Of a stretch of 64,000 nucleotides of DNA, positions 1,352 to 63,227 are shown in pieces (within the stretch, counting starts at the first letter, position 1; the number at the start of each line of letters is the position of its first letter). Source of the stretch: Candidatus Cloacimonadales bacterium (GTDB lineage Bacteria > Cloacimonadota > Cloacimonadia > G963667145). The notes beneath the pieces were generated by a model, which saw only the letters and a program-made list of their open reading frames with translations, ran no database searches and was not told the origin of the DNA. The stretch covers positions 158,718 through 222,717 of the forward strand of contig OZ245797.1 in the NCBI GenBank assembly GCA_965228195.1, given 5' to 3'. The translations under genes and the position numbers were made by a program.

Positions 1352-1514
1352 AAAATAAAAATTAAGAATTAAAAATGAAAAATTTCACCGCAACCCCGCA
1401 CTTTTCAGAGCATCGTCCTACTGATGGTTTCCTGCTTCCGCTAGGAATGAGGGCGGGAGGGGAAATATGTTTTTTTCTCCTTGCGGAGATTTGGTGGTTT
1501 GGCTTTCAGCCAGA

Positions 1515-15736: not shown

Positions 15737-15926
15737 AATCGGTTTAATTTTCTCCTTAAAATTAGTTCACCCTCAAATCAAAGCAAAAAAGGGAAAACGG
15801 CAAATATCTGTCAAATAGTTTCTTTGGTTGATTTCGCCGAAAGCTTTGTCGCTTCCGCTCCAAAGCTTTGGTTGATTTCCTATAAGTAAAAATGTCACCT
15901 TTTTTTTCTCCTTGCGGAGGGCTAGT

Positions 15927-15976
15927 ATGACCACTAAAATATAGTCGCAAATTTATAGCTTAATTTTAGTGGTCAT
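15927..15976. repeat. hairpin H2 (type B)
   Basis: 'atgaccactaaaat' / 'attttagtggtcat', a perfect 14-bp stem; 22-nt loop 'atagtcgcaaatttatagctta'. Confidence 0.85.
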
Positions 15977-16516
15977 AAATTAAAAGTTAAAAATGAAAAA
16001 TTTCATCCAAACCCTTTCCCTTTAAGTGATTAAATTTTTTCTCCTGCGGAGGCTATTTTTTTTGCGGGGCAGGTAAGCACCCGCTCCTTTCCTTATTTTG
16101 CTAAGTAAATTATTATTGCTTTCTCCTGCGGAGGGCTTACTCTTTTCGGATTGCCGAAAAGAGTAACAGAAAAGACAACTCCGCTTCAAAGCGCCAGCGA
16201 CGGAGCGTGTCACCAGCAGAGTAAAAAAGTGTGGTCGTTCCCGCTTATTACCCGTAGTCTTGTCATTTTCTGCTTTTGGCTTTGCACCTCTACTTAGAAA
16301 GTGATTGGTGTCGCTGGCTTAACAAAGTAACGAAAAGGGGCTAATTTCCCTTTAAGCGGAGGTTGTCCCCACACTCTAAGCAAATAAGCAAGCACCTATC
16401 CACCCAGCTGGGCAGGGCAGGAAGCTCCCTGCCCGCCCCCCTCATTCCTAGCGGAAGCAGGAATCCATCAGTAGGACGATGCTCTGAAAAGTGCGGGGTT
16501 TGAATGGAAAAAAATC

Positions 16517-16801
16517 CTAATCGCACCAACCATCAGATAAATCTTTCCACTCAGGGTTGTCTTTTTCTATCAGCTCTATCTTCCACTCTCTTTTCCACTT
16601 TTTCAGGCTTTTTTCTCGATACACGGCTTCCAGCACTGTTTCATACTCTTCGTAATAAACCAATCGAGTAACATTGTATTTATTGGTAAAACCTTTATTT
16701 ATTTTCTGCTTGTGGGTGGACACTCGCCAAACAAGGTTACGAGTGGTGCCGATATAGAGAGTGCCATTTCGACAGGATGCTAGTATATAAACATACTGCA
16801 T
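16517..16801 (-). CDS. GIY-YIG nuclease-domain protein (94 aa), nested inside repeat block R2
   Basis: 'VYILASCRNGTLYIGTTRNLVWRVSTH' is the GIY-x10-YIG motif. 'YEEYETVLEAVYREKSLKKWKREWK' matches the C-terminal helix and the conserved Arg/Glu. The gene is flanked by inverted copies of repeat module P. Confidence 0.8.
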   Translation of the reverse strand: MQYVYILASCRNGTLYIGTTRNLVWRVSTHKQKINKGFTNKYNVTRLVYYEEYETVLEAVYREKSLKKWKREWKIELIEKDNPEWKDLSDGWCD

Positions 16802-16938
16802 TATGCTTCCTTTGATTTTTTAGCTAAAATGGTATAGCTTTTATTTTGTGTTTACTGTTTTTTGTTCCCTACCCAACCCTTCCTTGGATTCCTGCTTCCG
16901 CTAGGAATGAGGGTGGGAGGGGAAAATGGGTTTCCTAC

Positions 16939-16988
16939 CTGACCACATAAATACGGCTAATCATTTGAGACTTCATTTATGTGGTCAG
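16939..16988. repeat. hairpin H3 (type A)
   Basis: 'ctgaccacataaat' / 'atttatgtggtcag'; loop 'acggctaatcatttgagacttc'. Followed by a duplicated 'gtcag' and then module S. Confidence 0.85.
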
Positions 16989-17532
16989 GTCAGATTTGGG
17001 GTGGCACTCTCCGCTTCATCGGGGTCACCTGTTTTCACTTGCTCGGTCGAGCAGAGACACTTAGCACTCTCTTCAAGTGTTGAAAACGCAAAGACCAAAG
17101 TGATTAGCCTAATCAGGAACAAATCTCGGAGATGCTCCCCGCCACGGTAATCTTAAGACATCTCACGACCTGTCTCTAGCGAGTTGAAGCGGAGTGCGTT
17201 TTCTTTTCTCTCCCCTCTCTTTTCGTTGAGCGTTCAACGAAAAGAGAGGGACTCACCGTAGGTGAACCAAAGGCTTTGTCGCTTCCGCTCCAAAGCAATT
17301 GATGAGTTACAAAGGATAATTGTTAATTAAAAATAAAAGTGAAAAAATCTACTCCACCAGATGGACAGGGTGGAAACACTTTACCCCTATTCCCTCATTC
17401 CTAGCGAAAGCAGGAATCCATCAGTAAAACGATGCTCTGAAAAGTGCGGGGCGAGGAAGAAAAAAACACCATCACTTAGTGGGGAAAGGATGGGGTGTAA
17501 TTTTTCATTTTTCATTCTCAATTTTTAATTTT

Positions 17533-17582
17533 ATGACCACTAAAATGAAGCTATAAATTTGAGACTATATTTTAGTGGTCAG
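17533..17582. repeat. hairpin H4 (type B)
   Basis: 'atgaccactaaaat' / 'attttagtggtca(g)'; loop 'gaagctataaatttgagactat'. Followed by 'atttggggtgg' (the start of S). Confidence 0.85.
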
Positions 17583-17658
17583 ATTTGGGGTGGATTTTTT
17601 CATTCTTCTTTTTTATTCTTTCATTTGCGTGAGCTACTGCTCACGCAACTATCAACTA

Positions 17659-19905
17659 TCAATTACCTAGTTCCGCGTCCCAGTCGAACTGCTCTTTTTT
17701 CAAGAGAGGTAGTTTATCATCATCGGCAAAGATATGCCAAATATTTTCGTCCAAACCGATAGTGTTTTTCCAGTGATTTTCCATCGTCCCCGTAATCACG
17801 GTGCCTTGATTAGTAAATGTTTGTGAGGTACTTGATAAAGAAAAATCACTACTAGATTTATAGTAATTGTTAAGTGATTGGAGATCTTTTCCTAGTTGAT
17901 TGGTCTGAACATAACCACCACCAGAAGATATAATTTGTATTTGACCTGTCCCATTACGCAAAACAGTGTTTTTTTCGATACTTGCATTTGCATTGTTGGC
18001 TCCTGAAATACTTGCCACCAAAGCTCCACCTTGAGAGTATCCATATCCTCTTACCTTGGTTATCTTCATAATATTTTTTTCTACTACCCCAGTTTTATTT
18101 TTAAAACCTCCTATAAGACCTCCCGTGTGAACAGAAGAATACGTTGTTAAAGAATTATAAACTTGAACAAGATCTATCTCCATATAACAGTTAGATATAT
18201 TCAAACCGCTGCTTACAGCATATCCTATAAGACCACCTACAGCTCCACTGCTGGAATTAGTAACATTAAGATAGTAATTAGTAAGAGCCAATCTACTGAA
18301 ATTTGAAGCATATGAATTAGAAACAAATCCCTGACTATATCTATTCCCGCTTATATTAATTCCATCTAATTCATGCCCTTTCCCATCAAAATTAGTGTTT
18401 AAAGTATAAATAAAACATCCAGCAGTAAATCCTTGGTCTATTTGCCAAATAGAGGCTGTTCCACTCTTAGAAAACTCCATATCTGTGTATAAACTCAGTG
18501 TGAAATCACTTCCCCCCCCCGCACTCTTACCTTTAGCATTCACAAGCCCTAGCCCGGTGTGGATAGACTCGGTAGCGCCTGAAGTAAATCCGGACATATC
18601 TGCCTCAAAGCCGCGCCGCGTGATAAGCCCATTGGTCGCGACGCTACTAACACCACCAGCGCAAGTCGGCACGGGATACTGGTCTCCTTCGGTGAAAGTC
18701 CAGTCAGTAGTTAAGTCGAAGTCTGCCTTGTTAGCCCAAAAAGTTGTCGTGTTGCTCTTATTATCTGAAAAACTCAAAGCGGCTAGATTGTAGTCGCCCA
18801 CAAAAAGATTCTCCCCGTGTTCCTGCACATCGTCAACATCGCCAGTATAGGTACTATTGTTATCCCAGTAAGGGTAGTAAACCCAGTAGTAGTTACCGAT
18901 GTCGTTGTTCCAGCGGGTGAAGCCGGTCTCCACCCAGCCATAAAGGTCAAGATATTCCATCCCACTTCTGTTTCCCGAAACCCGTCCAAGCGTTCCGTTT
19001 TTTGCCGGTTTGTAGTTGAGTTTAAACATATCGAGCATAGTAACAATATTAGTAAAATAAGCGTAAACTCCTATATAGCCAACTGCTCCTCCTACATGAG
19101 CATCAGTTATTAAAACGTCGGGGTCGTCACCGATGTTGCTGGTGATGGTGCCGTTGACCACCAAGCACTTTTGCACTTTCCCGCAATTTGAACTGCTAGC
19201 GCTAGTACCATCTTTGATACTTCCGGCAAACATACCCAGATATCTGCCTCCGGTGATGTGGCAATCTTTGATCAGGCAGTTTTGGATGGAGCCACCGTTG
19301 CAGACCTCGGCAGCCACGATACCTACCGTGTCGCCGTCGTAGATGACCTCGGCGTTTTCGATGACCAGATTTTGCACCGTTCCTTCTAGATTTTCGATAA
19401 ACCCTTTGCCCTCTATCTTGAAGTTGCATATCTTGTATCCGTTGCCATCTAAGGTCCCTTTAAATTCGCTGATAGATTTAATCGTTGCCCAGTTTAGGTC
19501 GATATCGCCTTCCAAGGTCATATCGTGCTCGCCGAAATTGATCTTCCCCTCTTCGCCGATCAGCGGCTGGTCGGCTTCGAAAATATCCAAGAATTCGCTC
19601 TCGTTGCTGAAGATTTTACTCTCGCCTATCGTAATAACCCCGTCGCTGGAGGCGAAGTTCTTTTGATCTTCGTGCTGGACGGGGAAGCCTGTGCCCTCTT
19701 TCATATACCAAGGATTGGCAGTGTTCGCATTAATTCCTACCGCATCTTTCCACTGCATCGTATCTTGCCAAAATTCTATGGTTTGCAAAAGGTCAGTATC
19801 GGTCTCCTGCTTGCCGCTTTTATCGCCGAGAGCTGCCCACAGGCTCAGCACTCCACCAAGAAGTGCCAGCACGAGCATCGCTTTTATTTTGGGAAAATTT
19901 TTCAT
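17659..19905 (-). CDS. secreted repeat protein with GLUG-like (GGxxG beta-helix) motifs, 748 aa
   Basis: Signal peptide 'MKNFPKIKAMLVLALLGGVLSLWAALG'. Recurrent 'GG[LA][IV]G...N[SC]' units ('VGGLIGYAVSSGLNISNCY', 'TGGLIGGFKNKTG', 'GGAVGYIGVYAY') resemble GLUG/adhesin-type beta-helix repeats. Repeat blocks R2 and R3 flank the gene. Confidence 0.55.
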   Translation of the reverse strand: MKNFPKIKAMLVLALLGGVLSLWAALGDKSGKQETDTDLLQTIEFWQDTMQWKDAVGINANTANPWYMKEGTGFPVQHEDQKNFASSDGVITIGESKIFSNESEFLDIFEADQPLIGEEGKINFGEHDMTLEGDIDLNWATIKSISEFKGTLDGNGYKICNFKIEGKGFIENLEGTVQNLVIENAEVIYDGDTVGIVAAEVCNGGSIQNCLIKDCHITGGRYLGMFAGSIKDGTSASSSNCGKVQKCLVVNGTITSNIGDDPDVLITDAHVGGAVGYIGVYAYFTNIVTMLDMFKLNYKPAKNGTLGRVSGNRSGMEYLDLYGWVETGFTRWNNDIGNYYWVYYPYWDNNSTYTGDVDDVQEHGENLFVGDYNLAALSFSDNKSNTTTFWANKADFDLTTDWTFTEGDQYPVPTCAGGVSSVATNGLITRRGFEADMSGFTSGATESIHTGLGLVNAKGKSAGGGSDFTLSLYTDMEFSKSGTASIWQIDQGFTAGCFIYTLNTNFDGKGHELDGINISGNRYSQGFVSNSYASNFSRLALTNYYLNVTNSSSGAVGGLIGYAVSSGLNISNCYMEIDLVQVYNSLTTYSSVHTGGLIGGFKNKTGVVEKNIMKITKVRGYGYSQGGALVASISGANNANASIEKNTVLRNGTGQIQIISSGGGYVQTNQLGKDLQSLNNYYKSSSDFSLSSTSQTFTNQGTVITGTMENHWKNTIGLDENIWHIFADDDKLPLLKKEQFDWDAELGN

Positions 19906-19967: not shown

Positions 19968-20966
19968 GTGTCAAATAGTTTCTTTGGGTGTTTTTGCCGA
20001 AAGCTTTGTCGCTTCCGCTCCAAAGCTTTGGTTTATTTTACCAAAAGGAAAAATATTACCTTTCTTTTTGGTCGTTCACCTTGCGGTGAGCTACTCTTTC
20101 TTGCAAAGCAGGTAAGCACCCATTCCTTTCCTTATTTTACGAAGTAATCTATTATTGCTTTCTCCTGCGGAGGGCGGACTCTTGTCGCTTTCAGCGGTGA
20201 GTCTTTTTTTCGCCTAGTGGCGAGATGTGTCGCCTTTCTTTTTGGTTATTGGCTTTCAGCCTGACCCTCTCTTTTCGTTGAACGCTCAACGAAAAGAGAG
20301 GGGAGAGAAAAGAAAACCGCTCCGCTTCAACTCGCTAAAGACGGGTCGTGAGATGTCTCTAGAGTTCCGTGGCGTAGAGCATCTCCGAGATTTTTTCCTG
20401 ACTGGCTTATCACTCTGGTCTTTCGTTTTCAACACCTTAAAGAGAGTGCCAAGTGTCTCTGCTCAACCAAGAAAGGAAAAAAAGTGACCCCAGATGAAGC
20501 GGAGTATACCATCTTACCCCTCTAAGCAAGCAAGTGAGACCTAGTCTATCCCCCCCAGCTGGGCGGAATGGGTGCTTGCCTGCTTGCCTAGAGGGAGGGA
20601 ACAATCTCCGCTTAACTGGGTCTTCTTGTTTTCCCTGCATTGATAAGCCAGTGACAAAAATCACTTTCTAAATAGAGGTGCAAAGCCAAAAGCAGAAAAT
20701 AACAAGACTACGGGTAATAAGCGGGAACAACCACACTTTTTTACTCTACTGGTGACACGCCCTGTCGCTGGCGTTCTGAAGCGGAGTTGTCTTTTCTGTT
20801 ACTCTTTTCGGCAATCCGAAAAGAGTAAGCCCTCCGCAGGAGAAAAAATTTAATCACTTAAAGGGAAAAGGTTTGGATGAAATTTTTTCATTTTTCATTT
20901 TTAATTTTTATTATCTGACACCAAAATATAAGCAAAAAATGATTAGCAACTATTTTGGTGTCAGAT
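19968..20966. repeat. repeat block R3: modules S (inverted), T3, Q (inverted), ending in hairpin H6
   Basis: 20230-20520 is the reverse of the S/T unit in R1/R2. 20690-20880 is the reverse complement of Q at 16120-16270. Lies between the GLUG-gene start and the hemW stop. Confidence 0.85.
20914..20963. repeat. hairpin H6 (type C, stem extendable to 17 bp 'tatctgacaccaaaata')
   Basis: 'ctgacaccaaaata' / 'tattttggtgtcag'; loop 'taagcaaaaaatgattagcaac' contains 'tgattagc'. Overlaps the hemW stop codon. Confidence 0.85.
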
Positions 20967-38471: not shown

Positions 38472-38547
38472 TGGTGGACCCAAGTGGATTCGAACCACTG
38501 ACCGTCCGGTTATGAGCCGGAAGCTCTACCAACTGAGCTATAGGTCC
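38472..38547 (-). tRNA. tRNA-Met (anticodon CAT; elongator-type, tRNA-Ile2/lysidine not excluded)
   Basis: The reverse complement folds as a cloverleaf: acceptor ggaccta/tgggtcc, anticodon loop 'ctCATaa', T-loop 'ggttcgaatcc', encoded CCA. Confidence 0.85.
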
Positions 38548-38559
38548 TATGACGATTTG

Positions 38560-39300
38560 AACGCTTAAAACAAGCCAAATTTTACCCTCGCTTATGTCAA
38601 GAAAAAATAGTTTGTGTCTGCTTTCTCCTGCGGAGGGCTCTGACCTGACCACATAAATACGGCTAATCATTTGAGACTTCATTTATGTGGTCAGGTCATA
38701 ATTAAGAGTTAAAAATTAAAAATGAAAAATTCCACCGCAACCCCGCACTTTTTTTTGCATCGTGCTACTTATGGATTCCTGCTTCCGCTAGGAATGAGGG
38801 AATAGGGGTAAAGCGTTTCCGCCCTGTCCATCTGGTGGAGTAGATTTTTCACTTTTATTTTTAATTAACAATTATCCAATGTAACTTATCAATTGCTTTG
38901 GAGCGGAAGCGACAAAGCTTGCGGAGGGCTTACTCTTGTCGCTTTAGCTAGTGGTTCACCTTGCGGTGAGCTACTCTTTCTTGCAGGGCAAGTAAACACC
39001 CATTCCCTTCCTTATTTTGCTAAGTAAATTATTATTGCTTTCTCCTGCGGAGGGCTTACTCTTTTCGGATTGCCGAAAAGAGTAACAGAAAAGACAACTC
39101 CGCTTCAGAGCGCCAGCGACGGGGCGTGTCACCAGCAAAGTAAAAAAGTGTGGTCGTTCCCGCTTATTACCCGTAGTCTTGTTATTTTCTAAACTTAACC
39201 TTTGCACCTCTATTTAGAAAGTGATTTTTGTCGCTGGCTTATCAATGCAAGGAAAATAAGAAAACCCCGTTAAGCGGAGGTTTCCCCGCCTTTAAGTCAT
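38560..39300. repeat. repeat block R4: H7 - inverted P - linker - Q, adjacent to tRNA-Met
   Basis: 38745-38930 is the reverse complement of 17270-17450 (P plus linker). 39040-39250 matches Q at 16120-16330. Detached hairpin H8 lies 340 bp further on at 39649. Confidence 0.85.
38641..38698. repeat. hairpin H7 (type A, extended 18-bp stem with duplicated 'tgacc')
   Basis: 'tgacctgaccacataaat' / 'atttatgtggtcaggtca'; loop identical to H3. Confidence 0.85.
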
Positions 39301-39648
39301 CGCTAGCTTTTGTGGTTGGCATATATTCAAGGCTCAGCACCAAATAAATACTCTAATCAAAAAGCGTCCAATTTCTTACACTGACTGAGCTTACGATAAT
39401 TGCGTAGTGCTATATCACCGATAAAAAAGAATGATAGTGATTCATAGCACAAGCAATATTAGCGTGCGAGGCGAAGTTTAGAAATTTAGCTTTTTGATTA
39501 TGTATTTTGTTTTTACCTTTTGTTTTACTTTTAGCTTTGGACACCCAAAGGGAAAAGTAAATAACTAGTCACCTATTAGGCGAAAGAATCCACTCTGACC
39601 AGTTAGGCGGGGTGGATTTTTTCATTTTTCATCTTTAATTATTATTTT

Positions 39649-39698
39649 CTGACCACATAAGTGCGGCTAAAGATTTTAGACTTAATTTATGTGGTCAG
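39649..39698. repeat. hairpin H8 (type A variant, 12-bp stem), solitary, just downstream of cysK
   Basis: 'ctgaccacataa' / 'ttatgtggtcag'; loop 'gtgcggctaaagattttagacttaat'. Preceded by the AT-rich 'ttttcatttttcat' box. Confidence 0.8.
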
Positions 39699-39705
39699 AA
39701 ATCCC

Positions 39706-40602
39706 CTATCTTCTAAACAAATCGGTGGAGAGATACCTATCGCCGCGGTCGGTCAGCACGGTCACTATTGTCCCTTTTTCCAGCTTTTCTGCCAGTTGCA
39801 CAGCACCCAACACATTGGCTCCAGAACTCATCCCCACGAAAAGACCTTCCTGTTCAGCAAGGCGCCTGGTCATCGCAAAAGCTTCGTTGCAAAAAACATT
39901 TTTCACTTGGTCTAACTTGTCAATCTCGTAAATCTTCGGTTTCACCGACTCCACCATATTTTTCAAACCTTGCAAATCGTGCTTCAACTGTGGCTCTAGC
40001 CCCACTATCTTAATCTTTTGGTTTTTCTGCTTGAAAAAGCGACTACACCCCATCAAGGTGCCGGTAGAACCCATCCCAGCCACGAAGTAGTCCAGCTTGC
40101 CCTCCAGCTGCTCATAAATCTCGGGAGCTGTCCCCTCATAGTGCGACAAAGGGTTAGCGGGATTACTAAACTGGTCAGGATAAAAATACTTTTCGGGATT
40201 CTCTTGTAGCAGCTCTTGCACCCGCTCAATCGCACCATCGGTGCCTTTATCTTTGGCAGAGAGAACCACCTCCACCCCAAAACCTTCCAAAATCTGCACC
40301 CGCTCTTTGCTGACGGCACTACTCATCACGATCTTGCACTTGTAGCCTAGGTGCGCTGCCAACATCGCCAAAGCCAACCCTGTGTTGCCCGAGGTCGCCT
40401 CGATAATCGTCTTGTCTTTGTTCAGGCTCCCGTCTGCCTCTGCCTTGCGGATCATCATCGCCGCGGGCCTGTCTTTTATCGAGCCTCCGGGATTCATAAA
40501 CTCCAACTTGGCGTAGATCTTCACACCCCCATGCGGCTCGATCTTGGGCAAACGCAGAAGCGGGGTGTTACCGATGCAGTCCAATAAATTAGCCGGTCTC
40601 AT
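39706..40602 (-). CDS. cysK: cysteine synthase (O-acetylserine sulfhydrylase, CysK/CysM type)
   Basis: PLP motif 'GGSIKDRPAAMMI' (Lys), 'TSGNTGLALA', 'GMGSTGT'; 298 aa. Confidence 0.9.
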   Translation of the reverse strand: MRPANLLDCIGNTPLLRLPKIEPHGGVKIYAKLEFMNPGGSIKDRPAAMMIRKAEADGSLNKDKTIIEATSGNTGLALAMLAAHLGYKCKIVMSSAVSKERVQILEGFGVEVVLSAKDKGTDGAIERVQELLQENPEKYFYPDQFSNPANPLSHYEGTAPEIYEQLEGKLDYFVAGMGSTGTLMGCSRFFKQKNQKIKIVGLEPQLKHDLQGLKNMVESVKPKIYEIDKLDQVKNVFCNEAFAMTRRLAEQEGLFVGMSSGANVLGAVQLAEKLEKGTIVTVLTDRGDRYLSTDLFRR

Positions 40603-50273: not shown

Positions 50274-50359
50274 TGGTGCGAGAGGGGGGACTTGAACCCC
50301 CAAGAGCAGAGCTCGCTGGATTCTAAGTCCAGTGCGTTTACCAATTTCACCACTCTCGC
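50274..50359 (-). tRNA. tRNA-Leu (anticodon TAG)
   Basis: The reverse complement 'gcgagagtggtgaaattggtaaacgcactggaCTTAGAAtccag...' has a long variable arm (class II), T-arm 'ggggttcaagtcccc' and encoded CCA. Confidence 0.85.
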
Positions 50360-50439: not shown

Positions 50440-51195
50440 AGGCAAAAAAGACAAGATTTCCTGCCCCAAAGGGCTGGAAATCTCTCCGCTTTCAGCGGGG
50501 AATGTTTTTTTCGCCTAGCGGCGAAGAGTTTTTTACTTTTCCCTTTGGGTTCTTGGCTTTCAGCCAAAATGTCACCTTTCTTTTTTTTTGAAAAAAAATA
50601 AATGTGACCGAAAGAAAAAATCAAATCAAAAGACAAAATCCTAACTTGCAAAACTCCTTCGTTGTGGCTGTAGTGTATCGTTTAGATTCTTTCTTAGATA
50701 TACTAAAGTAAGAGAAATAAACTCCTCACACATCCACAACTTCAGTCGTTTAAACAAGTTCACGGATTTAGCCTTGATTGATTACTAGCCCTTCCCGCCT
50801 AGCTGGGTAGGATAGGTGCTTGCTTATTTGCTTAGAGTGTGGGAACAACCTCCGCTTAAAGGGGTCTTCTTATTTTAGTTACATTGATAAGCCAGCGACA
50901 AAAATCGCTTTCTCAGTAAAGATGCAAAACCAGAAGCAGAAAATGACAAGACTACGGGTAATAAACGGGAACAACCACACTTTTTTACTCTGCTGGTGAC
51001 ACGCCCCGTCGCTGGCGCTCTGAAGCGGAGTTGTCTTTTCTGTTACTCTTTTTGGCAATCCGAAAAGAGTAAGCCCTCCGCAGGAGAAAGCAAATATTAC
51101 TGCTTTAATGAGACTAAGACGATGGTGTCTCCGACACCTTATCTTTCTCCCCTAATTCCTAGCGGAAGCAGGAATCCATCAGTAGGACGATGCTG
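50440..51195. repeat. repeat block R5, including direct repeat DR1 (50571-51195), left boundary of the defense island, adjacent to tRNA-Leu
   Basis: 50571-51195 and 61604-62226 differ at about 17 positions over ~625 bp by eye. The block contains Q (reverse orientation) and P, and begins with hairpin-like 'gtcaccttt...aaatgtgac'. Confidence 0.9.
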
Positions 51196-51391
51196 AAAAA
51201 AACCAAACAAAGCAAACAGCTACAAAAAAAAATCTTTCGCTGTTTTTCAGCTTGCGGGTAACGGTTTGAATATGTGGAATACAGGATTTCAAAGCACTTC
51301 ACTATCAAACCGTTGAGAAGTTGAAGCGGGCTATAACCGTTGAATTCACTACTATTTCGCCTATTTTGTATATAAAATGTTGTAACATTTT

Positions 51392-52936
51392 TTATTCTTC
51401 ATCCTTTTTAAAGACTGCCAAATGTTCTAATAATTCTATGTTTCTTTTCGGTTTCTTTATAGTCTCAAATAATTTAATCCCTGTTGGTATCGGTTTAAAG
51501 AATTCAGCCCGATTATCTTTTAAACTTTTAATCAACTTGCTCCTAACTTTTGATGGAAAGCTAACTTTAAATAAGTCCAAAGACTTTACAAAGTACACCA
51601 ACCAAATAATATCATATTGATTGTCCTCTGGATTTTTCAACTTGTCATTTAAAAGATTTTCAATCACTGAACTAATTGTTGAAATCGTCCTGACCTTTTT
51701 CCTATTGTTCAATATTATTTGCTCTATTATTCCTAATATTTGAGGAAATGATTTATTTCTTCTTTCCTTAAGCATAAGCAATAAGCTTATTGTTTTCAAT
51801 AAATCTTTTTCCTTAAAGTCAAATTTAAGGTCAAAATCCTTGGTGTAAAGTTCACTTAAAAACCTATCAACAACACCAGTACCTTCGTATTTTTGGTCTA
51901 CCTTTAGAGTTCCTCTTATTGAACTTTCAAATCTTTTATAACTTACCTTTCTCTTATACCTTAATGAATATTGTTGGTAATCAGCCGTCCATTCCCTAAA
52001 TAATCCTTCTGGCAATTCATCAATTTTCGATTTACCTTCATTTAGCGTCAGGTTGTATAAAGCTAACTGTTTCTGCAATACCTTAATTATTTGATTAGCT
52101 TCTTCTTTTGTCTGACACAAAAAACGATAATCGTCTTTAAATCTTACTCCTAAAAAATCAATCCCTTGAGTATCGATTATTTTAGAGCACTCAGTATCCA
52201 AAGCAACAAGAATTAACTCAGAAATTAAGTCTGAAAGAGCTGGCCCAATAGCGATTCCGTTTGTACACCCATCATTAGAATATTGGAATAGTTTATCCAG
52301 AACTAATCCGACAAAATTATTAAAATCACTCCGATTACCCTTTTTTCTTATCTTCTCCTTAGTGTGAATTGCCCAAGCAATACTATGTGTATAGATTGAA
52401 GAATAGAAATTTTTAATATCTGTTTTAAGTATGTATTTATAGTTATAAGCTTCTGCTACTAAATCATTTTCTGCCATTTCAAGAAACTCATAAATCATTC
52501 TACCAGCTCTCAAATTTCCAAGAAGTCCTTCACTTTTATTTGAAACGGGTATTGGAAAACTATAAGAGTAGATTTTATTCTGTCGCCTAAACAATGATTT
52601 CTGAATTAATTCCCAATCATTTATCAAGTACCATACAATGTCGTGATATATTTTAGGAGCAATAATTCCAAATGTTCTATCAGTCAGTTGTGTTTTTGGA
52701 AATGAAACATTTAATAATTCGGATTTTTCAGGCTCAAATTTAGGCTGGCTACCTGAATTATCTATTTCAAAATATGGATTTGTCAATAGGTCAAATTTAC
52801 CAACTTCAAAACACGGAGGCATAACATATTGCTCAGGAAAATAACCTTCTTCCAATAACCATTTTGCAACAATGTCTTTTGGTACTTTTTTTAGAAGTTT
52901 TTTAGTTTCAATGCTATGTTTTCTTGGTAATGTCAT
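51392..52936 (-). CDS. stand-alone reverse transcriptase of the UG/Abi (defense-associated, DRT/Abi-P2-like) type, 514 aa
   Basis: RT motif 1 'FPIPVSNKSEGLLGNLRAGR', motif 2 'DIKNFYSSIYTHSI', motif B-like 'NGIAIGPALSDLISELIL', motif C 'FLGVRFKDDYRF' (catalytic DD), then a ~170-aa helical C-terminal domain. No maturase or endonuclease domain; A+T-rich codon usage. Confidence 0.8.
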   Translation of the reverse strand: MTLPRKHSIETKKLLKKVPKDIVAKWLLEEGYFPEQYVMPPCFEVGKFDLLTNPYFEIDNSGSQPKFEPEKSELLNVSFPKTQLTDRTFGIIAPKIYHDIVWYLINDWELIQKSLFRRQNKIYSYSFPIPVSNKSEGLLGNLRAGRMIYEFLEMAENDLVAEAYNYKYILKTDIKNFYSSIYTHSIAWAIHTKEKIRKKGNRSDFNNFVGLVLDKLFQYSNDGCTNGIAIGPALSDLISELILVALDTECSKIIDTQGIDFLGVRFKDDYRFLCQTKEEANQIIKVLQKQLALYNLTLNEGKSKIDELPEGLFREWTADYQQYSLRYKRKVSYKRFESSIRGTLKVDQKYEGTGVVDRFLSELYTKDFDLKFDFKEKDLLKTISLLLMLKERRNKSFPQILGIIEQIILNNRKKVRTISTISSVIENLLNDKLKNPEDNQYDIIWLVYFVKSLDLFKVSFPSKVRSKLIKSLKDNRAEFFKPIPTGIKLFETIKKPKRNIELLEHLAVFKKDEE

Positions 52937-53084
52937 TCTCTGTCTTTAAATAACTGGCAACCACTCGCTACCATCATTTTACATATCATCCTTATTTGAC
53001 TTGCTATCTACATAGTTTATATTTTTTCCCATAACTCTTACTCACTCCTACTTGTCGAAAAAATAAGCCCAAACTTCTTTGTCA

Positions 53085-53500
53085 ACCAAAATAGTCAAGG
53101 CTTTGTCGCTTCCAGCGGTGAATGTTTTTTTCTCCTGCGGAGGGCTTACTCTTTTCGGATTGCCGAAAAGAGTAACAGAAAAGACAACTCCGCTTCAAAG
53201 CGCCAGCGACGGGGCGTGTCACCAGCAGAGTAAAAAAGTGTGGTTGTTCCCGCTTATTACCCATAGTCTTATTATTTTCTGTATCTGGCTTTGCATCTCT
53301 ACTTAGAAAGTGATTTTTGTCACTGGCTTATCAATGCAGAGAAAATAAGAAGATCCCGTTAAGCGGAGATTGTCCCCACACTCTAAGCAAATAAGCAAGC
53401 ACCTATCCCGCCCAGATAAGCAGCGCAAGAAGCCCATTTTCCCCTCCCACCCTCATTCCTAGCGGAAGCAGGAATCCATCAGTAGGACGATGCTGAAAAA
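53085..53500. repeat. repeat block R6 inside the island (Q forward ... P forward) between the RT promoter region and the DUF1016 gene
   Basis: 53130-53230 matches Q ('ttctcctgcggagggcttactcttttcggattgccgaaaagagtaacagaaaagacaactccgcttcaaagcgccagcgacggggcgtgtcacc'). 53450-53500 matches P ('cctcattcctagcggaagcaggaatccatcagtaggacgatgctg'). Confidence 0.85.
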
Positions 53501-53602
53501 AACCATTTGACAATCAATGTCTTAACCAAACCCTTTGAAAGATCAATCCAAATTGTTCAAAACAAAAAGCCAATATTTTGAGTTGGTCGAAAGGAGATAG
53601 CT

Positions 53603-54604
53603 GTGAGTAACAAAAAAAATATAGATGATCAACTAATTAGTTCAAATTTTTATTCTGACATAAAAAATATCCTCCAAAATGCTCGCTCTAAAGCCCGCTC
53701 TGCTGTAAATTCGACAATGGTTGAAGCTTATTGGTTTATAGGTAAACGAATAGTAATAGAAGAGCAAAATGGACAAAGCAAAGCAAAATACGGTCTGCAT
53801 TTATTGGAAAATTTATCAACAAAACTAGCCGATGATTTTGGCAGAGGATTTTCTTATGCTAATCTCAGAAATTTCCGTCAGTTTTATCTAACCTATCCAC
53901 AGAAAGAGATTTGCTACACAATGTGTAGCAAATTGACTTGGAGCCACAACAGATTAATAATGCGTGTTGAAGATCCAAAAGCTCGGGATTACTACTTACA
54001 AGAGGCTTCACAAGAAAACTGGAGCGTTCGCCAACTAGAGCGTAATATCAAATCTAACTATTTTGAACGCTTGCTTTCTACGCAAAAAAACGATGCTGTT
54101 TCTAATACTGAGAAAACACTCGACTTTATTAAAGATCCTTATGTTTTAGAGTTTTTGCAACTGCCAGAGAGTAACATAAAAGAATCAGCTTTAGAAGAAG
54201 CTATTGTCAGTGAATTAAAAAGTTTCTTGCTTGAAATGGGAAAGGGATTCTCTTTTGTAGCTAAACAAATGCGTATAAGCACCGAAACTTCTCATTTTTA
54301 TATCGATCTTGTATTTTATAATTATTTGCTAAAATGCTTTGTGATTATAGATCTTAAAACAGGCAAACTCACCCACCAAGACATTGGGCAAATGGATATG
54401 TATGTGCGTATGTTTGACGATTTAAAACGCAATAAAGACGATAATCCTACCATCGGAATTATCTTATGTGATAGCAAAGATAAAACCGTCGTGAAATATT
54501 CTGTGTTAAAAGAGAACGAACAACTTTTTGCTTCAAAATATCAGAAAGTGCTACCAACCGAAGAAGAGCTAATTGCTGAAATTGCAAGAGAAAAACGCAG
54601 ATAG
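53603..54604 (+). CDS. DUF1016/YhcG-like protein with C-terminal PD-(D/E)xK nuclease fold
   Basis: 333-aa ORF. 'FYIDLVFYNYLLKCFVIIDLKTGK' gives the D...(D/E)xK nuclease core seen in YhcG-family proteins; A+T-rich; between the RT and the hsd operon. Confidence 0.75.
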   Translation: MSNKKNIDDQLISSNFYSDIKNILQNARSKARSAVNSTMVEAYWFIGKRIVIEEQNGQSKAKYGLHLLENLSTKLADDFGRGFSYANLRNFRQFYLTYPQKEICYTMCSKLTWSHNRLIMRVEDPKARDYYLQEASQENWSVRQLERNIKSNYFERLLSTQKNDAVSNTEKTLDFIKDPYVLEFLQLPESNIKESALEEAIVSELKSFLLEMGKGFSFVAKQMRISTETSHFYIDLVFYNYLLKCFVIIDLKTGKLTHQDIGQMDMYVRMFDDLKRNKDDNPTIGIILCDSKDKTVVKYSVLKENEQLFASKYQKVLPTEEELIAEIAREKRR

Positions 54605-54715
54605 TAGTGTTTTTTTTCCACCAAGCACATAAATTTGCTCCTAAGAGATATTAAAATTTATTCTATTCAAATTATTTATAAAATTGTAAACAATTTGTGT
54701 GCTGGTAAGAGTCTT

Positions 54716-57700
54716 CTATAATCTGATTTGATTACCAGTTTGACTCTGAATCAATGTTTCAAAAATAAACTCTTTATATCTTCTTTGAAAATCTTTGTCG
54801 TTGTTAAACTTTTTGAACACTTCAGTTTGACTAAACAAATATTGTTGCACCACTTCCTCAAGTTTTTTATCTGCACTAATTTTTGCGTTTTGGCGATCTG
54901 AGTATTTTATCGTATTCATTATTTCTTTATTAGCTTTCATTTCTGCAGGTAATTGCTCTATTAATATTTTTCTTACTTTGTCTTTATCAGACCACTCAAT
55001 ATCACCAAATCGCTGATTAAATACACTTAAAATATTTTCCAGTGTATCTAACTCTGGTTCTTGTTGTCCACCTCTTACATCAACAGGAATTCCACAAATT
55101 TCGCCTGGCTTCTCAACTAATGCAATATCTTTGGTTGTCTCTTTTGAGGGACGATAACTGTCCATATCAATACTTTCCAAAATTCCTTCCGTAAAATCAT
55201 CAGTCTGATCTATATATAACTTAGTAACAAGGTATTTAAGAAACCAGAAAAGCTTTTCCCAAGTTTGATTGTTAAAATCTAGTATTTTAGTAAGATAGCT
55301 GTAAACTCTCAAAAATGATTTTGCTTTTGCCTTGAAATCTATTTGTTGATCTTTGCTAATATCATTTTTAAATATTTTAACAGACCTATCTATTATAGGG
55401 TCAAGTTTTGCACGCTCTTCACCTTCAATATATTTTTTGAAAAAGTCATCAATTTGGTAATCAGAATAAACCTCGAAAGCTTCCATAGAGTCTACTAAAT
55501 CGTTCAGTTTATTTGGATTAGTTTCTTCACTTAATATGGTTGCCGTGTAATAAGGGTCAAAAGCCAACTTAATTTCTTCTGCTTCGTTGAAAAAGTCTAA
55601 GACAAAGGTATCTTTTTTATGTGGTTTTTTAGCACGGTTTAATCGTGAAAGTGTTTGAACGGCTTGAACTCCTGCCAACTTTTTATCTACATACATAGTG
55701 TGCAATAATGGCTCATCAAAACCTGTCTGGTATTTTTCGGCAACTATCAAAAAGCGATATTCCATTTTTTTAAAATTCTTGGGAATATCTGTTTTAAATG
55801 TTTTGAAGTTATTCATGCCAACCTCATTATATTCAACACCCTTGTATAGTTTTGTTCCAGAGAAAGCAACAATAGCTTTGTAGGGCGATTTTATTTCTTT
55901 CAAATAAGTGTCGAAAGCTTGCTTATACTTAATTGCTAATTCAATACTTTTGGTAACAACCATCGCTTTTGCTTTTCCACTTATTAGTTGACGAACATCA
56001 CGATGAAAATGGTCAATCATTATTTTAGACTTTTCGGCAATGGCAAATTCATTACCCTCTACATAAGCTCGAAGTTTTTTCTGTGCCTGTTTGGTGTCAA
56101 ATTCAGGATTATCTTCAACCGCTTTAATTAGCTTATAAAAAGAGTTGTAAGTTGTGTAATTTTTCAATACATCCAGAATAAACCCTTCCTCAATTGCCTG
56201 TTTCATGCTGTAGACATGGAAAGCATAAAATCTATGTTTTATCTCCCCATTTTCATCGGTGTAAGTTTCTTCCGATTTTACACCAAAAGTTTCCAGTGTT
56301 TTATTTTTTGGCGTAGCCGTAAAGGCAAAGTAAGAGCCGTTTTTGATCATTTTACGACTTTCAATCAGGTCGTTTATTTTATCCTCCAAGGTTTTCTCTT
56401 CCTTTTCTTCTTCGCCATGTTTATCTGCTAAAACAGCATTCATTTTCGAAGAAGTCTGTCCACTTTGTCCACTGTGTGCTTCATCAATGATAATTCCGAA
56501 TTGCATAGCTGGCATATCTGCCATTTCATCTAATAAAAACGGGAAAGTCTGAACGGTGCAAACAATTACTTTTTTACGGTTGGCGAGTGCTTCTTTTAGC
56601 TGACTTGTTTTACTTCCACCAACACTGGTAATGTGCTCAACAATGCCACGTTTTGGCGAGAACTGTTTAATATCTTCGCTTAGCTGTTTATCAAGCACAA
56701 TACGGTCTGTAATTACGATAACCGAATCAAATAAATGCGTTTCTCCTGAAGTGTCAAACAAACCATGCAGTTGATGAGCCAACCAAGCTATCGATTTTGA
56801 TTTGCCCGAACCTGCCGAATGTTGAATCAAGTATTTATTGCCAACACCATTACTTTTTGCATCTGCTAAAATTTGCCTGACTGCGGTAAGCTGATGATAA
56901 CGAGGAAAAATCATCATGCGTTTTACTCTTTTAGTTTCCTCGTCGGTTTCTTCAACAACCTGTGCAAATTTGTCGATAATGTTGGCAAGCGACTGTTTGG
57001 TTAAAACCTCTTCCCAAAAGTAATGTGTTTTTAGTCCCGTTGGGTTTACTGGATTTCCAGCCCCAAAATTGCCTGTTGCTCTACCTTCGTTTAAGCCTTT
57101 GTTAAAAGGCAAAAAGAAAGTTTTTTTATGATTCAAATGCGAGCTCATAAAGATCAATTCTGTATCGACTGCAAAATGAACCATGCAACGAGCAAAAGAA
57201 AATATCTTTTCTTTTGGGTCTCGGTCGTTTTGGTATTGGCGAATGCCGTTGTGAACGGTTTGTCCGCTTAACGGATTTTTAAGCTCACATGTAATAATTG
57301 GCAAGCCGTTTAAAAAGATAGTCAAATCTAAGCGGTTGGCATTGTCAGAACTATAAACTAACTCCTGAGTCACTGAAAAAATATTGGCGTTGAATTTATC
57401 AAGGTCTTTGGTATTGTAGCTTGAAGCAGGTTGACGGAAAAACAAATTCACGGTTTTATCGAAGTGCTTTATACCTTTTCGTAACACTTCAATTACGCCT
57501 AGTTTCCTGAGTTTTTCATCCAAACGCACCAAAAAAGAACGCTCGCCCTTGCGCTTAATCATTTGGTAAGTCTCAGGCTGGGTCTTTTTGATAAACCCCC
57601 ACAATTGTTTTGGGTTTATGCAAAACTCTTTGTCGAAATCTTTAGAAACAGTCTCGCAAAACTTGTTTTGCTCCACAAGTTGTTTCACAATGTATTTCTG

Positions 57701-57736
57701 AAACCCCTTTTCTGATGTATCTGTAAATGTCCTCAT
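54716..57736 (-). CDS. hsdR: Type I restriction enzyme R subunit HsdR
   Basis: 1006-aa ORF. N-terminal nuclease domain, SF2 helicase motifs 'QHSAGSGKSKSIAW' (Walker A) and 'IIIDEAHSGQ' (DEAH), and a C-terminal helical domain. Last gene of the operon. Confidence 0.9.
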   Translation of the reverse strand: MRTFTDTSEKGFQKYIVKQLVEQNKFCETVSKDFDKEFCINPKQLWGFIKKTQPETYQMIKRKGERSFLVRLDEKLRKLGVIEVLRKGIKHFDKTVNLFFRQPASSYNTKDLDKFNANIFSVTQELVYSSDNANRLDLTIFLNGLPIITCELKNPLSGQTVHNGIRQYQNDRDPKEKIFSFARCMVHFAVDTELIFMSSHLNHKKTFFLPFNKGLNEGRATGNFGAGNPVNPTGLKTHYFWEEVLTKQSLANIIDKFAQVVEETDEETKRVKRMMIFPRYHQLTAVRQILADAKSNGVGNKYLIQHSAGSGKSKSIAWLAHQLHGLFDTSGETHLFDSVIVITDRIVLDKQLSEDIKQFSPKRGIVEHITSVGGSKTSQLKEALANRKKVIVCTVQTFPFLLDEMADMPAMQFGIIIDEAHSGQSGQTSSKMNAVLADKHGEEEKEEKTLEDKINDLIESRKMIKNGSYFAFTATPKNKTLETFGVKSEETYTDENGEIKHRFYAFHVYSMKQAIEEGFILDVLKNYTTYNSFYKLIKAVEDNPEFDTKQAQKKLRAYVEGNEFAIAEKSKIMIDHFHRDVRQLISGKAKAMVVTKSIELAIKYKQAFDTYLKEIKSPYKAIVAFSGTKLYKGVEYNEVGMNNFKTFKTDIPKNFKKMEYRFLIVAEKYQTGFDEPLLHTMYVDKKLAGVQAVQTLSRLNRAKKPHKKDTFVLDFFNEAEEIKLAFDPYYTATILSEETNPNKLNDLVDSMEAFEVYSDYQIDDFFKKYIEGEERAKLDPIIDRSVKIFKNDISKDQQIDFKAKAKSFLRVYSYLTKILDFNNQTWEKLFWFLKYLVTKLYIDQTDDFTEGILESIDMDSYRPSKETTKDIALVEKPGEICGIPVDVRGGQQEPELDTLENILSVFNQRFGDIEWSDKDKVRKILIEQLPAEMKANKEIMNTIKYSDRQNAKISADKKLEEVVQQYLFSQTEVFKKFNNDKDFQRRYKEFIFETLIQSQTGNQIRL

Positions 57737-57739
57737 AAA

Positions 57740-61314: not shown

Positions 61315-62285
61315 TTATTTACCTCGTCAATTTAAAAAAGTCATAACAATAAACAAATTACAGCTTTGCAAAAAAAAATCTTGCTGCAAATTTGAGTTTT
61401 AGCAAAAATGTGACTTTTTGGCAAGCTAAAAACATCAACTTGTGTGTCGGAGCTTGCAAATTTGCTGTTTGTGTGGAGTGCAATCACAACTATTTACTAA
61501 CATCATTGTCTATAATTTTCATTATAGTATCCAAGAAAACTTATCCAAATTTTCCCGTCAACCAAAATAGTCAAGGCTTTGTCGCTTCCGGCGGGTTACT
61601 TATGTCACCTTTCTTTTTTTTTGAAAAAAATAAATGTGACCGAAAGAAAAAATCAAATCAAAAGACAAAATCCTAACTTGCAAAACTCGTTCGTTGTGGC
61701 TGTAGTGCATCATTTAGATTCTTTCGGAGCATAGCTAAAGACAGAGAAATAAACTCCTCACACATCCACAACTTCAGTCGTTTAAGCAAGTTCGACGGAT
61801 TTAGTCTTGATTGATTACTAGCCCGTCCCGCCTAGCTGGGTAGGATAGGTGCTTGCTTATTTGCTTAGAGTGTGGGAACAACCTCCGCTTAAAGGGGTCT
61901 TCTTATTTTAGTTACATTGATAAGCCAGCGACAAAAATCGCTTTCTCAGTAAAGATGCAAAACCAAAAGCAGAAAATGACAAGACTACGGGTAATAAACG
62001 GGAACAACCACACTTTTTTACTCTGCTGGTGACACGCCCCGTCGCTGGCGCTCTGAAGCGGAGTTGTCTTTTCTGTTACTCTTTTTGGCAATCCGAAAAG
62101 AGTAAGCCCTCCGCAGGAGAAAGCAAATATTACTGCTTTAATGAGACTAAGACGATGGTGTCTCCGACACCTTATCTTTCTCCCCTAATTCCTAGCGAAA
62201 GCAGGAATCCATCAGTAAGACGATGCCCAAAAAAGTGCGGGGTTGCGGTGGATTTTTTCATTTTTCACTCTTAATTTTTTCTTTT

Positions 62286-62335
62286 ATGACCACTAAAATG
62301 AAGTTATAAATTTGAGGCTATATTTTAGTGGTCAT
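62286..62335. repeat. hairpin H9 (type B)
   Basis: 'atgaccactaaaat' / 'attttagtggtcat'; loop 'gaagttataaatttgaggctat'. Followed by module S. Confidence 0.85.
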
Positions 62336-62990
62336 ATTTGGGGTGGCACTCTCCGCTTCATCGGGGTCACTTTTTTTCCTATCTTAGTAGAGCAGAGACA
62401 CTTGGCACTCTCTTAAGGTGTTGAAAACGAAAGACCAAAGTGATTAGCCAGTCAGGAACAAATCTCGGAGATGCTCCCCGCCACGGTAATCTTTAAGACA
62501 TCTCACGCCCTGTCTCTAGCGAATTGAAGCGAAAGCGACAAAGCTGTGGGGACAATCTCCGCTTAAAGGGAAATTAGCCCCTTTTCGTTACTTTGTTAAG
62601 CCAGTGACAAAAACCACTTTCTAAGTAGAAGTGTAAAAGTTACGTTTAGAGAATGACAAGTCTACGGATAATAAGCGGGAACAACCACACTTTTTTACTC
62701 TGCTGGTGACACGCCCCGTCTCTAGCGAATTGAAGCGGAGCGCGTTTTCTTTTCTCTCCCCTCTCTTTTCGTTGAGCGATCAAAGAAAAGAGAGGGTCTT
62801 GCTGAAAGCAATAAGAGTAAGCCCTCCGCAGGAGAAAGCAATAATAATTTACTTAGCAAAATAAGGAAAGGAGCGGGTGCTTACCTGCCTGCAGAAAAAA
62901 ATGCAAGGTTAGAAAGAGAAAAACATAATCACTCAGTGGGAAAAAAATTGAATGAAATTTTTTCATTTTTCATTCCCAATCTTTTATTTT

Positions 62991-63040
62991 ATTACCACTA
63001 AAATGAAGCTATAAATTCGAGACTATATTTTAGTGGTCAT
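62991..63040. repeat. hairpin H10 (type B, one stem mismatch)
   Basis: 'attaccactaaaat' / 'attttagtggtcat'; loop 'gaagctataaattcgagactat'. Confidence 0.8.
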
Positions 63041-63150
63041 ACCTGCCCTCCGCGAGGAGAAAAAGACATCCCACCCCCTTGCAAGCAGAAAACAAAAAAA
63101 AAGATTGACTCAAAATCTATCTTCCAGAGTTTACTCCTAAATTAAGATGT

Positions 63151-63227
63151 GCGCCCGTGGCTCAATTGGATAGAGCACCTGACTACGGATCAGGAGGTTT
63201 GGGGTTCGAATCCCTACGGGCGTGCCA
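63151..63227 (+). tRNA. tRNA-Arg (anticodon ACG)
   Basis: 'gcgcccgtggctcaattggatagagcacctgaCTACGGAtcagg...ggttcgaatccc...cgggcgtgcca': a cloverleaf with anticodon ACG, encoded CCA and a G1:U72 wobble. Confidence 0.85.

Follow-up and report, generated by a model that had tools for sequence, protein, structure and literature searches.

The 64,000-nt stretch of a Candidatus Cloacimonadales genome analysed here (contig OZ245797.1, positions 158,718 to 222,717 of the forward strand; hereafter the window) carries a gene for a small GIY-YIG endonuclease between two inverted copies of a dispersed hairpin repeat, which we call module P. We consider it very likely, with a probability of roughly 0.85, that this is an ssn locus, in which the gene of an Ssn-family GIY-YIG endonuclease is placed between two inward-facing copies of its cognate hairpin, the Ssn-related motif (SRM). 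As part of the same reading, module P would be the SRM variant of this genome, and its other copies would form the dispersed SRM population. The Ssn/SRM system was already published in 2025, and the window locus would be a new member of this known kind, with an expected architecture.

The NTS-ssnA-NTS architecture was described by Chenal et al. (Nat Commun 2025, PMC11893778) for the cd10448 clade of GIY-YIG proteins, where NTS is the oriented repeat CGTCATTCCCGCGMAVGCGGGAATCYRG and its generalised form was named SRM. Among the homologues of Neisseria meningitidis NMV_0044 (ssnA), 71% have an SRM nearby and 42% have SRMs on both sides (PMC11893778). The meningococcal SsnA, a cd10448 protein of 94 amino acids (aa), binds the hairpin exclusively in single-stranded DNA (ssDNA) and on just one of the strands, makes its cut a few nucleotides upstream, and leaves double-stranded DNA (dsDNA) and RNA untouched; the substitutions Y6A, Y17A and E64A each abolish cutting, and cleavage in N. 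meningitidis is most affected by three bases of the 5' flank (PMC11893778). Hairpin-directed cleavage restricted to ssDNA has been demonstrated for four enzymes, from N. meningitidis, N. elongata, N. wadsworthii and Wolbachia, and the meningococcal enzyme lowers transformation by NTS-containing DNA (PMC11893778). Regulation by the repeats was considered at first by these authors, who also likened NTS-ssnA-NTS to an insertion sequence (IS) and to RAYT/REP, with mobility and domestication proposed only as hypotheses (PMC11893778). In the literature library searched, no later paper on the Ssn family was found.

Organization of the locus

The forward copy of the 27-mer CCTCATTCCTAGCGGAAGCAGGAATCC spans 16440-16466, its exact reverse complement spans 16886-16912, and direct reading showed that the complementarity of the inverted repeat bracketing the open reading frame (ORF) is perfect over 29 nt (16439-16467 versus 16885-16913). 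An earlier note on this DNA correctly reported an exact 27-bp inverted repeat, but placed it at 16468-16494 and 16888-16914, which is 28 nt off on the left and 2 nt off on the right. Its distance of ~390 bp between the repeats also needs revision, as the gap between the 27-mers is 419 bp, while the DNA lacking a second copy in the window spans 384 bp (16501-16884). The coordinates of the 94-aa ORF (16517..16801, minus strand) and its GIY-YIG domain were accurate, and this is the one ORF product between the inverted repeats with a protein-family match. The cassette, read as a putative ssn locus and listed in the direction of the gene, consists of the following parts, with the surrounding mosaic given last.

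16885..16913, minus strand: upstream hairpin of the SRM type (module P), in forward orientation with respect to the gene, reading C-CCTC-ATTCCT-A-GCGGAAGC-AGGAAT-CCA and cut short where the unique DNA starts
16802..16884, minus strand: AT-rich 5' spacer of ssn with no second copy in the window, including an AGGA-type ribosome-binding site (aaaggaagcataATG)
16517..16801, minus strand: ssn gene for a 94-aa single-domain GIY-YIG nuclease, with Y5, Y16, R26, H30, E63 and N82 kept
16468..16500, plus strand: sequence by which the long form of module P is extended on its 3' side, ATCAGTAGGACGATGCTCTGAAAAGTGCGGGGTT, common wholly or partly to other P copies and located past the stop codon of ssn, before the downstream hairpin
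16439..16467, plus strand: downstream hairpin of the SRM type (module P), in inverted orientation with respect to the gene, with the recognisable strand being the plus strand
15809..17593, no strand: intergenic repeat mosaic around the cassette, at whose left edge (15823) synteny with the sister genomes stops

The forward hairpin lies 86 bp upstream of the ATG, and the inverted hairpin 52 bp past the stop codon. Self-comparison of the window identified 16501-16884 as the sole unique DNA within a 1.8-kb intergenic mosaic, with repeat blocks on either side (15809-16500 and 16885-17593). Such mosaics occupy nine intergenic blocks and total ~6.2 kb, or 9.7% of the window. Module P occurs eight times in the window (up to 3 mismatches), compared with an expectation of 0 from 100 dinucleotide-preserving shuffles, and all eight copies fall within the intergenic repeat blocks.

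In the other seven copies, GGAATCC is followed by ATMAGTARNACGATGC, whereas the copy upstream of the gene (16886-16912) turns to AT-rich unique sequence one base past GGAATCC; thus, the right-hand P copy is indeed truncated exactly at the repeat edge, as had been proposed. The suggestion that the gene carries its own A/T-rich flanks applies to the 5' side, where the spacer (16802-16885, 32% GC) is private except for its last base. On the 3' side, most of the sequence (16468-16500) is the common long P module, and the gene-private DNA next to the stop codon is limited to 16 nt.

No sigma-70 consensus promoter for ssn was found on the gene strand, although Cloacimonadota promoters may differ from this consensus, and no terminator-like T-run follows the two ssn-flanking hairpins. 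A scan of the window at Rfam gathering thresholds detected four tRNAs only; the hairpins correspond to no known RNA family. A tblastn search of the 64 kb with the GIY-YIG protein revealed a single copy and no remnants.

The GIY-YIG protein

The ssn product is a 94-aa protein, in which the Pfam GIY-YIG domain (PF01541) covers residues 2-74 (E=6e-16) and a second domain is absent. Its AlphaFold model shows one compact GIY-YIG domain (pLDDT 94), and the best solved-structure matches of the model are all GIY-YIG proteins (UPF0213, Slx1 and HIGLE, and weakly, with E>1, UvrC and I-TevI); the PDB contains no structure of the Ssn family. In an alignment of 16 family sequences, residues Y5, Y16, R26, H30, E63 and N82 are invariant. 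Of these, Y5, Y16 and E63 match the SsnA residues Y6, Y17 and E64 by position only, with a one-residue offset.

We found 1348 homologues of this protein, and the listed ones share about 59-73% identity with it and come from many phyla. They include a protein from Rickettsia bellii (67% identity), and Rickettsia has been named as an SRM-rich genus (PMC11893778). Membership in the Ssn (cd10448) clade is suggested indirectly, by homologues that are flanked by SRMs, most of them with canonical GTC-ATTCCY..RGGAAT-C hairpins. The GIY-YIG protein had sub-threshold matches only among the NCBIfam profiles, including the group I intron endonuclease model TIGR01453 (E=0.0018, 18 bits against a cut-off of 56), and no defence-system model of PADLOC matched it. 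No relatives were found on viral contigs, and neither the protein nor the cassette contains an HUH domain.

The UPF0213 structures 1ywl and 1zg2 are related to the protein with sequence E-values of 0.007 and 0.017 and with 25-26% identity in structural alignment. As judged from its sequence, the GIY-YIG protein is outside the UPF0213/YhbQ housekeeping family. The identification as a housekeeping YhbQ-type protein, which had been raised previously, is contradicted by this distant relationship (~25% identity) and by the absence of the gene from the syntenic site in two sister genomes (see below).

Association of ssn homologues with hairpins

One genome per species was scanned for homologues. This gave 80 loci from many phyla, encoding proteins 51-73% identical to that of the window, with Lysobacter, Flavobacteriia, Chloroflexota, Planctomycetes, Patescibacteria, Rickettsiaceae and Thermodesulfobacteriota among them. 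The pairing of gene and hairpin was analysed with the core pattern ATTCYY-N8/9-RRGAAT on 81 sequences (the 80 loci and the window) containing 83 gene copies. A core hairpin is located within 200 bp of the gene in 57 of the 83 copies, and the hairpin density of 3.5 per kb near the gene drops to 0.052 per kb at distances over 600 bp, corresponding to a 68-fold enrichment. The most common arrangement, found in 28 of the 83 copies including that of the window, combines a forward hairpin on the upstream side of the gene with an inverted hairpin on its downstream side. The median spacers are 27 bp between the hairpin and the ATG and 13 bp between the stop codon and the hairpin, and the flank consensus is GTC-ATTCCY...RGGAAT-CCA. 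Several homologue loci contain hairpin arrays of 7-13 units.

Because the enrichment is family-wide, the pairing of this gene family with the hairpin is no local accident. The description of the GIY-YIG gene as captured between the repeats is not supported, since hairpin-gene-inverted hairpin is the ancestral architecture across the family. The related proposal that the nuclease is the processing enzyme of the repeat agrees with the hairpin cleavage demonstrated for four homologues (PMC11893778).

In a scan of a metagenome collection with CCCTCATTCCT-N8/9-AGGAATC, we detected 61 loci, about half of which look like true SRMs and only two of which have an ssn homologue. This fits dispersed hairpins outnumbering the genes, and adds nothing on the lineage of the window.

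Two of the homologue loci, L066 (3300-4950) and L067 (3700-5060), belong to a Thermodesulfobacteriota metagenome-assembled genome (MAG; OZ245366.1, 1.48 Mb), and their ssn genes are embedded in long tandem arrays with a unit length of 112-136 bp. Every unit combines a canonical SRM, CGTCATTCCTGCGRAAGCAGGAATCCAG, with an inverted second type of hairpin, GGATTCCGTGTCARGCACGGAATGAC, forming a REPIN-like doublet. The two ssn copies are 124 kb apart and differ by 1 nt, but the ends of an element could not be defined from these near-identical copies because the flanking arrays are repeats themselves.

Module P as a variant hairpin

The P hairpin, ATTCCT-A-GCGGAAGC-AGGAAT, has the SRM arms ATTCCY and RGGAAT. 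Its core is related to the Neisseria dRS3 repeat (ATTCCC-N8-GGGAAT), of which the SRM is the oriented form (dRS3/NTS). In computed folds of the single strand, it forms 6 bp, a bulged A, 2 bp and a 4-nt GGAA loop with -4.9 kcal/mol, versus -2.0 kcal/mol for shuffled sequences. The 1-nt A bulge after ATTCCT is present in all eight window copies, producing a 21-nt core, and unbulged copies are absent from the window (0). The 5' flank is CTC in the six copies with TCATT and CTA in the remaining two, and the 3' C is present.

In the sister species the hairpin reads CCCTCATTCCTGCGCAGGCAGGAATC, and none of the 12 hairpins of the sister-genome locus L001 has the A bulge, that genome having two other subtypes. 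The sister genome shares the 5' flank CTC, where nearly all other hairpins flanking homologues have GTC. The exact bulged hairpin had 0 matches in the metagenome collection. The presence of uniform and mutually exclusive hairpin variants in sister species indicates that the repeats spread or were homogenised after the species split. The same pattern of lineage-uniform variants is seen in REPIN populations.

Several properties of module P and its locus speak against the assignment to the Ssn/SRM system. The published degenerate motif, HGTCWYN(0-2)YYVSBRHN(0-5)WNVSBRGN(0-2)RNCYNB, has 0 matches in the 64-kb window, and none at P even with its G relaxed to S. The 5' flank CTC instead of GTC changes one of the three bases with the strongest effect on cleavage in N. 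meningitidis, and the 1-nt bulge in the stem departs from the characterised sites. The spacers of 86 and 52 bp also exceed the family medians of 27 and 13 bp. The motif misses P because of the G-to-C change in the flank and the bulge in the stem. It was derived from 29 genomes as a search aid and is not a definition; for this reason, P is filed as a variant SRM and not as a canonical one.

Sister genomes

Among the species representatives, a Candidatus Cloacimonadota MAG (OY781092.1, 1.57 Mb) is the nearest genome, and the housekeeping DNA of the window is 76-81% identical to that of two sister genomes. Synteny, which covers secF-secD-atpC-atpD-yebC, breaks off a short way upstream of yebC at 15823, and this position coincides with the left edge of the mosaic. 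In both sister genomes a gene for a beta-eliminating lyase is located upstream of yebC at a distance of ~200 bp, and neither has a GIY-YIG gene or a hairpin at this site.

The closest homologue (P0010, 73% identity) is encoded at another location of the 1.57-Mb sister genome, adjoining cinA, where ssn is present as two identical tandem copies. Each of them is preceded by CCCTCATTCCTGCGCAGGCAGGAATCTAGG; on the 3' side, one copy is followed by an inverted hairpin of the second subtype, and the other by a forward hairpin of the first subtype. A single-copy gene found at the same place in related genomes and free of repeats, the situation put forward earlier as refuting a link between gene and repeat, is thus not what these genomes contain: the gene is missing from the syntenic site in two of them and duplicated elsewhere among hairpins in one.

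Between the tandem ssn copies of the sister locus (L001, 9150-9880), a 211-bp unit is repeated three times and includes an inverted hairpin of the second subtype, ATTCTCGCGGAAGCGGGAAT. The unit also holds a GGCTTTGTCGCT...CTCCAAAGC module, which is present in the window at 15840-15870, 17270-17296 and 20000-20030. Next to ssn in the window, between two mosaic blocks, lies the gene of a 748-aa protein (17659-19905, minus strand) with a hydrophobic N-terminus and no Pfam match. Its homologues in L001 (10858-12941 and 17017-19143), one of them apparently split (172 + 499 aa), adjoin the ssn copies and hairpins as well, and the protein looks like a member of a variable paralogous family tied to the repeats.

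Two further contigs of the same assemblies, L002 (6.9 kb, 11x coverage) and L147 (15.4 kb, 123x coverage) from the ENA samples ERZ25074360 and ERZ25074352, are short linear perfect fold-backs (inverted duplications). The centre of one lies in cinA beside the ssn tandem, and that of the other inside the 748-aa gene, generating a chimeric 456-aa ORF. These contigs may be long-read artefacts or real inverted duplications.

Alternative explanations

The most probable alternative, although an unlikely one, is that hairpin-ssn-hairpin is an active autonomous mini-transposon of ~480 bp, in which Ssn excises or copies both the cassette and the P modules as non-autonomous derivatives, making it a GIY-YIG analogue of RAYT/REPIN or IS200/IS605. 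The same idea was raised in the 2025 paper (PMC11893778). It is consistent with the IS-like build of inverted terminal hairpins around a single nuclease gene, with the position of the cassette at a synteny breakpoint and its absence from the site upstream of yebC in two sister genomes, and with a hairpin variant fixed in each species. Multiple copies occur in one sister genome (two identical copies elsewhere) and in the Thermodesulfobacteriota genome with two copies 124 kb apart and 1 nt different, but tandem or segmental duplication or gene conversion between repeat arrays explains these cases equally well. The window Ssn is also about equally similar to proteins of other phyla (70-72%) and to the sister protein (73%), with housekeeping DNA being 76-81% identical.

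On the other hand, there is no target-site duplication (GCCCGCCC on the left versus TGGGAGGG on the right), and the window contains only one copy in 64 kb. No pair of empty and filled sites was found, the contigs of cluster members being short fold-backs that do not reach the locus. GIY-YIG enzymes are hydrolytic with no known strand joining, which means that host functions would be needed, and the two predicted nicks are on opposite strands, unlike in IS200/IS605. That the ~480-bp unit is currently mobile as a minimal selfish element, whose nuclease together with host replication or repair also spreads the P modules in the manner of a GIY-YIG counterpart of RAYT/REPIN, appears slightly less probable again. 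If the unit were mobile, the A bulge and the CTC flank would reflect recent co-evolution of enzyme and repeat.

A purely cis-regulatory role of the flanking hairpins, as operator, terminator or mRNA stabiliser with no nuclease-substrate relation, is far less probable. Throughout the family the hairpins are near the start and stop codons (medians of 27 and 13 bp), and regulation was the initial idea of the 2025 authors (PMC11893778). However, the hairpin is also found far from the gene, in six further window copies and in arrays of 7-13 at other loci, its binding and cleavage have been demonstrated for homologues (PMC11893778), and no terminator-like T-run follows it.

It is more doubtful still that the gene encodes a free-standing GIY-YIG homing endonuclease that entered the repeat secondarily by double-strand-break homing. 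The catalytic domain, the weak TIGR01453 match far under its cut-off, and the start of the unique cassette exactly at the hairpin edge would suit such an insertion. The 94-aa protein, however, is a single domain without a DNA-binding extension, the locus has no intron or intein context, and viral contigs provided no relatives; moreover, the characterised family members never cut dsDNA (PMC11893778). The homing-type secondary insertion proposed in the earlier note is thus disfavoured.

Least credible of all is a fortuitous association, in which a housekeeping YhbQ/UPF0213-type gene happens to lie in a repeat-rich intergenic region: mosaic repeats are abundant (9.7% of the window) and similarly sized stand-alone GIY-YIG proteins exist, but the UPF0213 similarity is distant (E=0.007-0.017, 25-26% identity in structural alignment), the same hairpin is 68-fold enriched near 83 homologous gene copies from unrelated phyla, and the gene is missing from the syntenic site in the sister genomes.

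Proposed mechanism

If the window locus is an ssn locus, module P would fold, when its DNA becomes single-stranded, into the hairpin with 6 bp, the bulged A, 2 bp and the GGAA loop. By analogy with the characterised enzymes, Ssn would bind this hairpin in a strand-specific manner and recognise its ATTCCT/AGGAAT arms together with the 5' flank and the C directly 3' of the arms. In the presence of Mg2+, it would then introduce a nick into the ssDNA at a distance of a few nucleotides (~3 nt) on the 5' side of the CCTCATT motif, leaving dsDNA and RNA untouched. With the spacing known from N. meningitidis, the plus-strand nick is predicted near 16436/16437 and the minus-strand nick near 16916/16915; both positions are just outside the hairpin pair, and they are on opposite strands. 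P-bearing ssDNA arising from uptake, conjugation, replication or repair would probably be cut in this way, which would alter recombination at loci flanked by P. The unit of gene and hairpins probably originated as a selfish, IS-like cassette or remains one.

Repeat mosaics and the wider window

Apart from the two ssn-flanking hairpins, module P is present at the following positions of the window, read here as putative SRM copies.

17393..17419, plus strand: SRM/P copy with 1 mismatch in the same mosaic as the cassette, adjoining the 748-aa gene
1426..1452, minus strand: dispersed SRM/P copy with 1 mismatch in the 3' arm
38773..38799, minus strand: dispersed SRM/P copy, exact
51151..51177, plus strand: dispersed SRM/P copy with 1 mismatch at the edge of the defence island
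53451..53477, plus strand: dispersed SRM/P copy, exact, between the genes of a DRT reverse transcriptase and a YhcG-like nuclease
62184..62210, plus strand: dispersed SRM/P copy, with 2 mismatches, where the defence island has its other edge

Five of the P hairpins are on the plus strand and three on the minus strand, numbers too small for a test of strand bias. Since all 1-kb bins of the window show a negative GC skew and the minus strand carries most of the long ORFs, the plus strand is probably the lagging strand throughout.

The mosaics contain a second, near-perfect palindrome family of ~54 nt with at least 10 copies, for example CTGACCACATAAAT...ATTTATGTGGTCAG, with the variants TGACCACTAAAAT and TGACACCAAAAT. 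It was found at 1295-1355, 1767-1820, 15926-15977, 16937-16997, 17532-17583, 20913-20966, 38643-38703, 39647-39707, 62285-62336 and 62990-63041, and a distance of 24 nt separates one copy from the P hairpin upstream of ssn. All four of the window's tRNA genes (Met, 38472-38547; Leu, 50274-50359; Arg, 63151-63227; Ser, 63653-63743) are located in or adjoin intergenic regions with mosaic repeats.

A low-GC island (50500-62350, 32-39% versus ~46% GC) carries defence genes. These encode a DRT-type reverse transcriptase (51392-52936; PADLOC RT_UG14, E=8e-214), a PD-(D/E)xK nuclease of the YhcG/PDC-S02 type (53603-54604), and a type I restriction-modification system (hsdR/S/M, 54716-61314). Direct repeats of 300 nt from the mosaic, 99% identical to each other, frame the island (50762-51061 and 61795-62094). 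Three P hairpins in the same orientation (51151, 53451 and 62184) are associated with it, and the tRNA-Leu gene (50274-50359) lies beside it.

Significance

The locus extends the Ssn/SRM system to the Cloacimonadota, a phylum known largely from metagenomes. It also indicates that real cognate repeats can escape the published search motif for SRMs; the counts of Ssn genes without repeats may accordingly be too high. Sister species with mutually exclusive, uniform hairpin variants offer a compact natural test case for the co-evolution of enzyme and repeat, and these variants bear on the question of whether NTS-ssnA-NTS units are mobile. Because Ssn enzymes are under development as site-specific ssDNA cutters, the bulged-site variant is a candidate for a new specificity.

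Comparison with known systems

UPF0213/YhbQ proteins (1zg2, 1ywl) have the same fold and size as the window protein and are its best solved-structure matches, but share only 25-26% identity with it. With the I-TevI-type homing endonucleases it has the fold of the catalytic domain in common, whereas their DNA-binding domain and intron are absent here, and the characterised Ssn family members act on ssDNA only.

The REP/REPIN-RAYT systems (PMC3116915, PMC2817692) resemble the window locus in their usually single-copy nuclease gene flanked by inverted copies of a genome-dispersed hairpin, in their lineage-specific repeat populations, and in the recognition of the hairpin in ssDNA. However, RAYTs, as HUH/Y1 enzymes, act through covalent intermediates and are able to rejoin DNA, whereas Ssn is a hydrolytic GIY-YIG enzyme. 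The HUH/Y1 (IS200/IS605-like) transposase between inverted repeats that defines a REP/RAYT system is absent from the window locus.

The dRS3 repeats and neisserial intergenic mosaic elements (NIMEs; PMC1797815) likewise have a 20-nt core of the ATTCCC-N8-GGGAAT type within mosaics of reshuffled intergenic modules, and adjoin variable or accessory genes and rearrangement breakpoints. In the window, by comparison with NIMEs, a hairpin is found next to some of the modules only (8 hairpins for 6.2 kb of mosaic), and the rest have no sequence relationship with the RS units of Neisseria. The likeness of the window mosaic to the NIME organisation is drawn from published description and not from a sequence test.

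The closest counterpart is the SsnA/SRM system itself (PMC11893778). The window differs from it in its Cloacimonadota host with a small genome (~1.56 Mb), in the CTC instead of GTC 5' flank, in the A bulge with its 21-nt core, in the failure of the published motif to match any copy, and in its longer spacers. Both systems, however, encode a 94-aa single-domain GIY-YIG protein with conserved tyrosines and glutamate. In both, the gene lies between inverted oriented hairpins with ATTCCY...RGGAAT arms, preceded by TCA and followed by C, and the hairpin is dispersed in many intergenic copies. The position of P copies and mosaics beside accessory or variable genes, such as the 748-aa gene and the low-GC defence island, parallels the NTS-gene-NTS clusters of Neisseria (PMC11893778).

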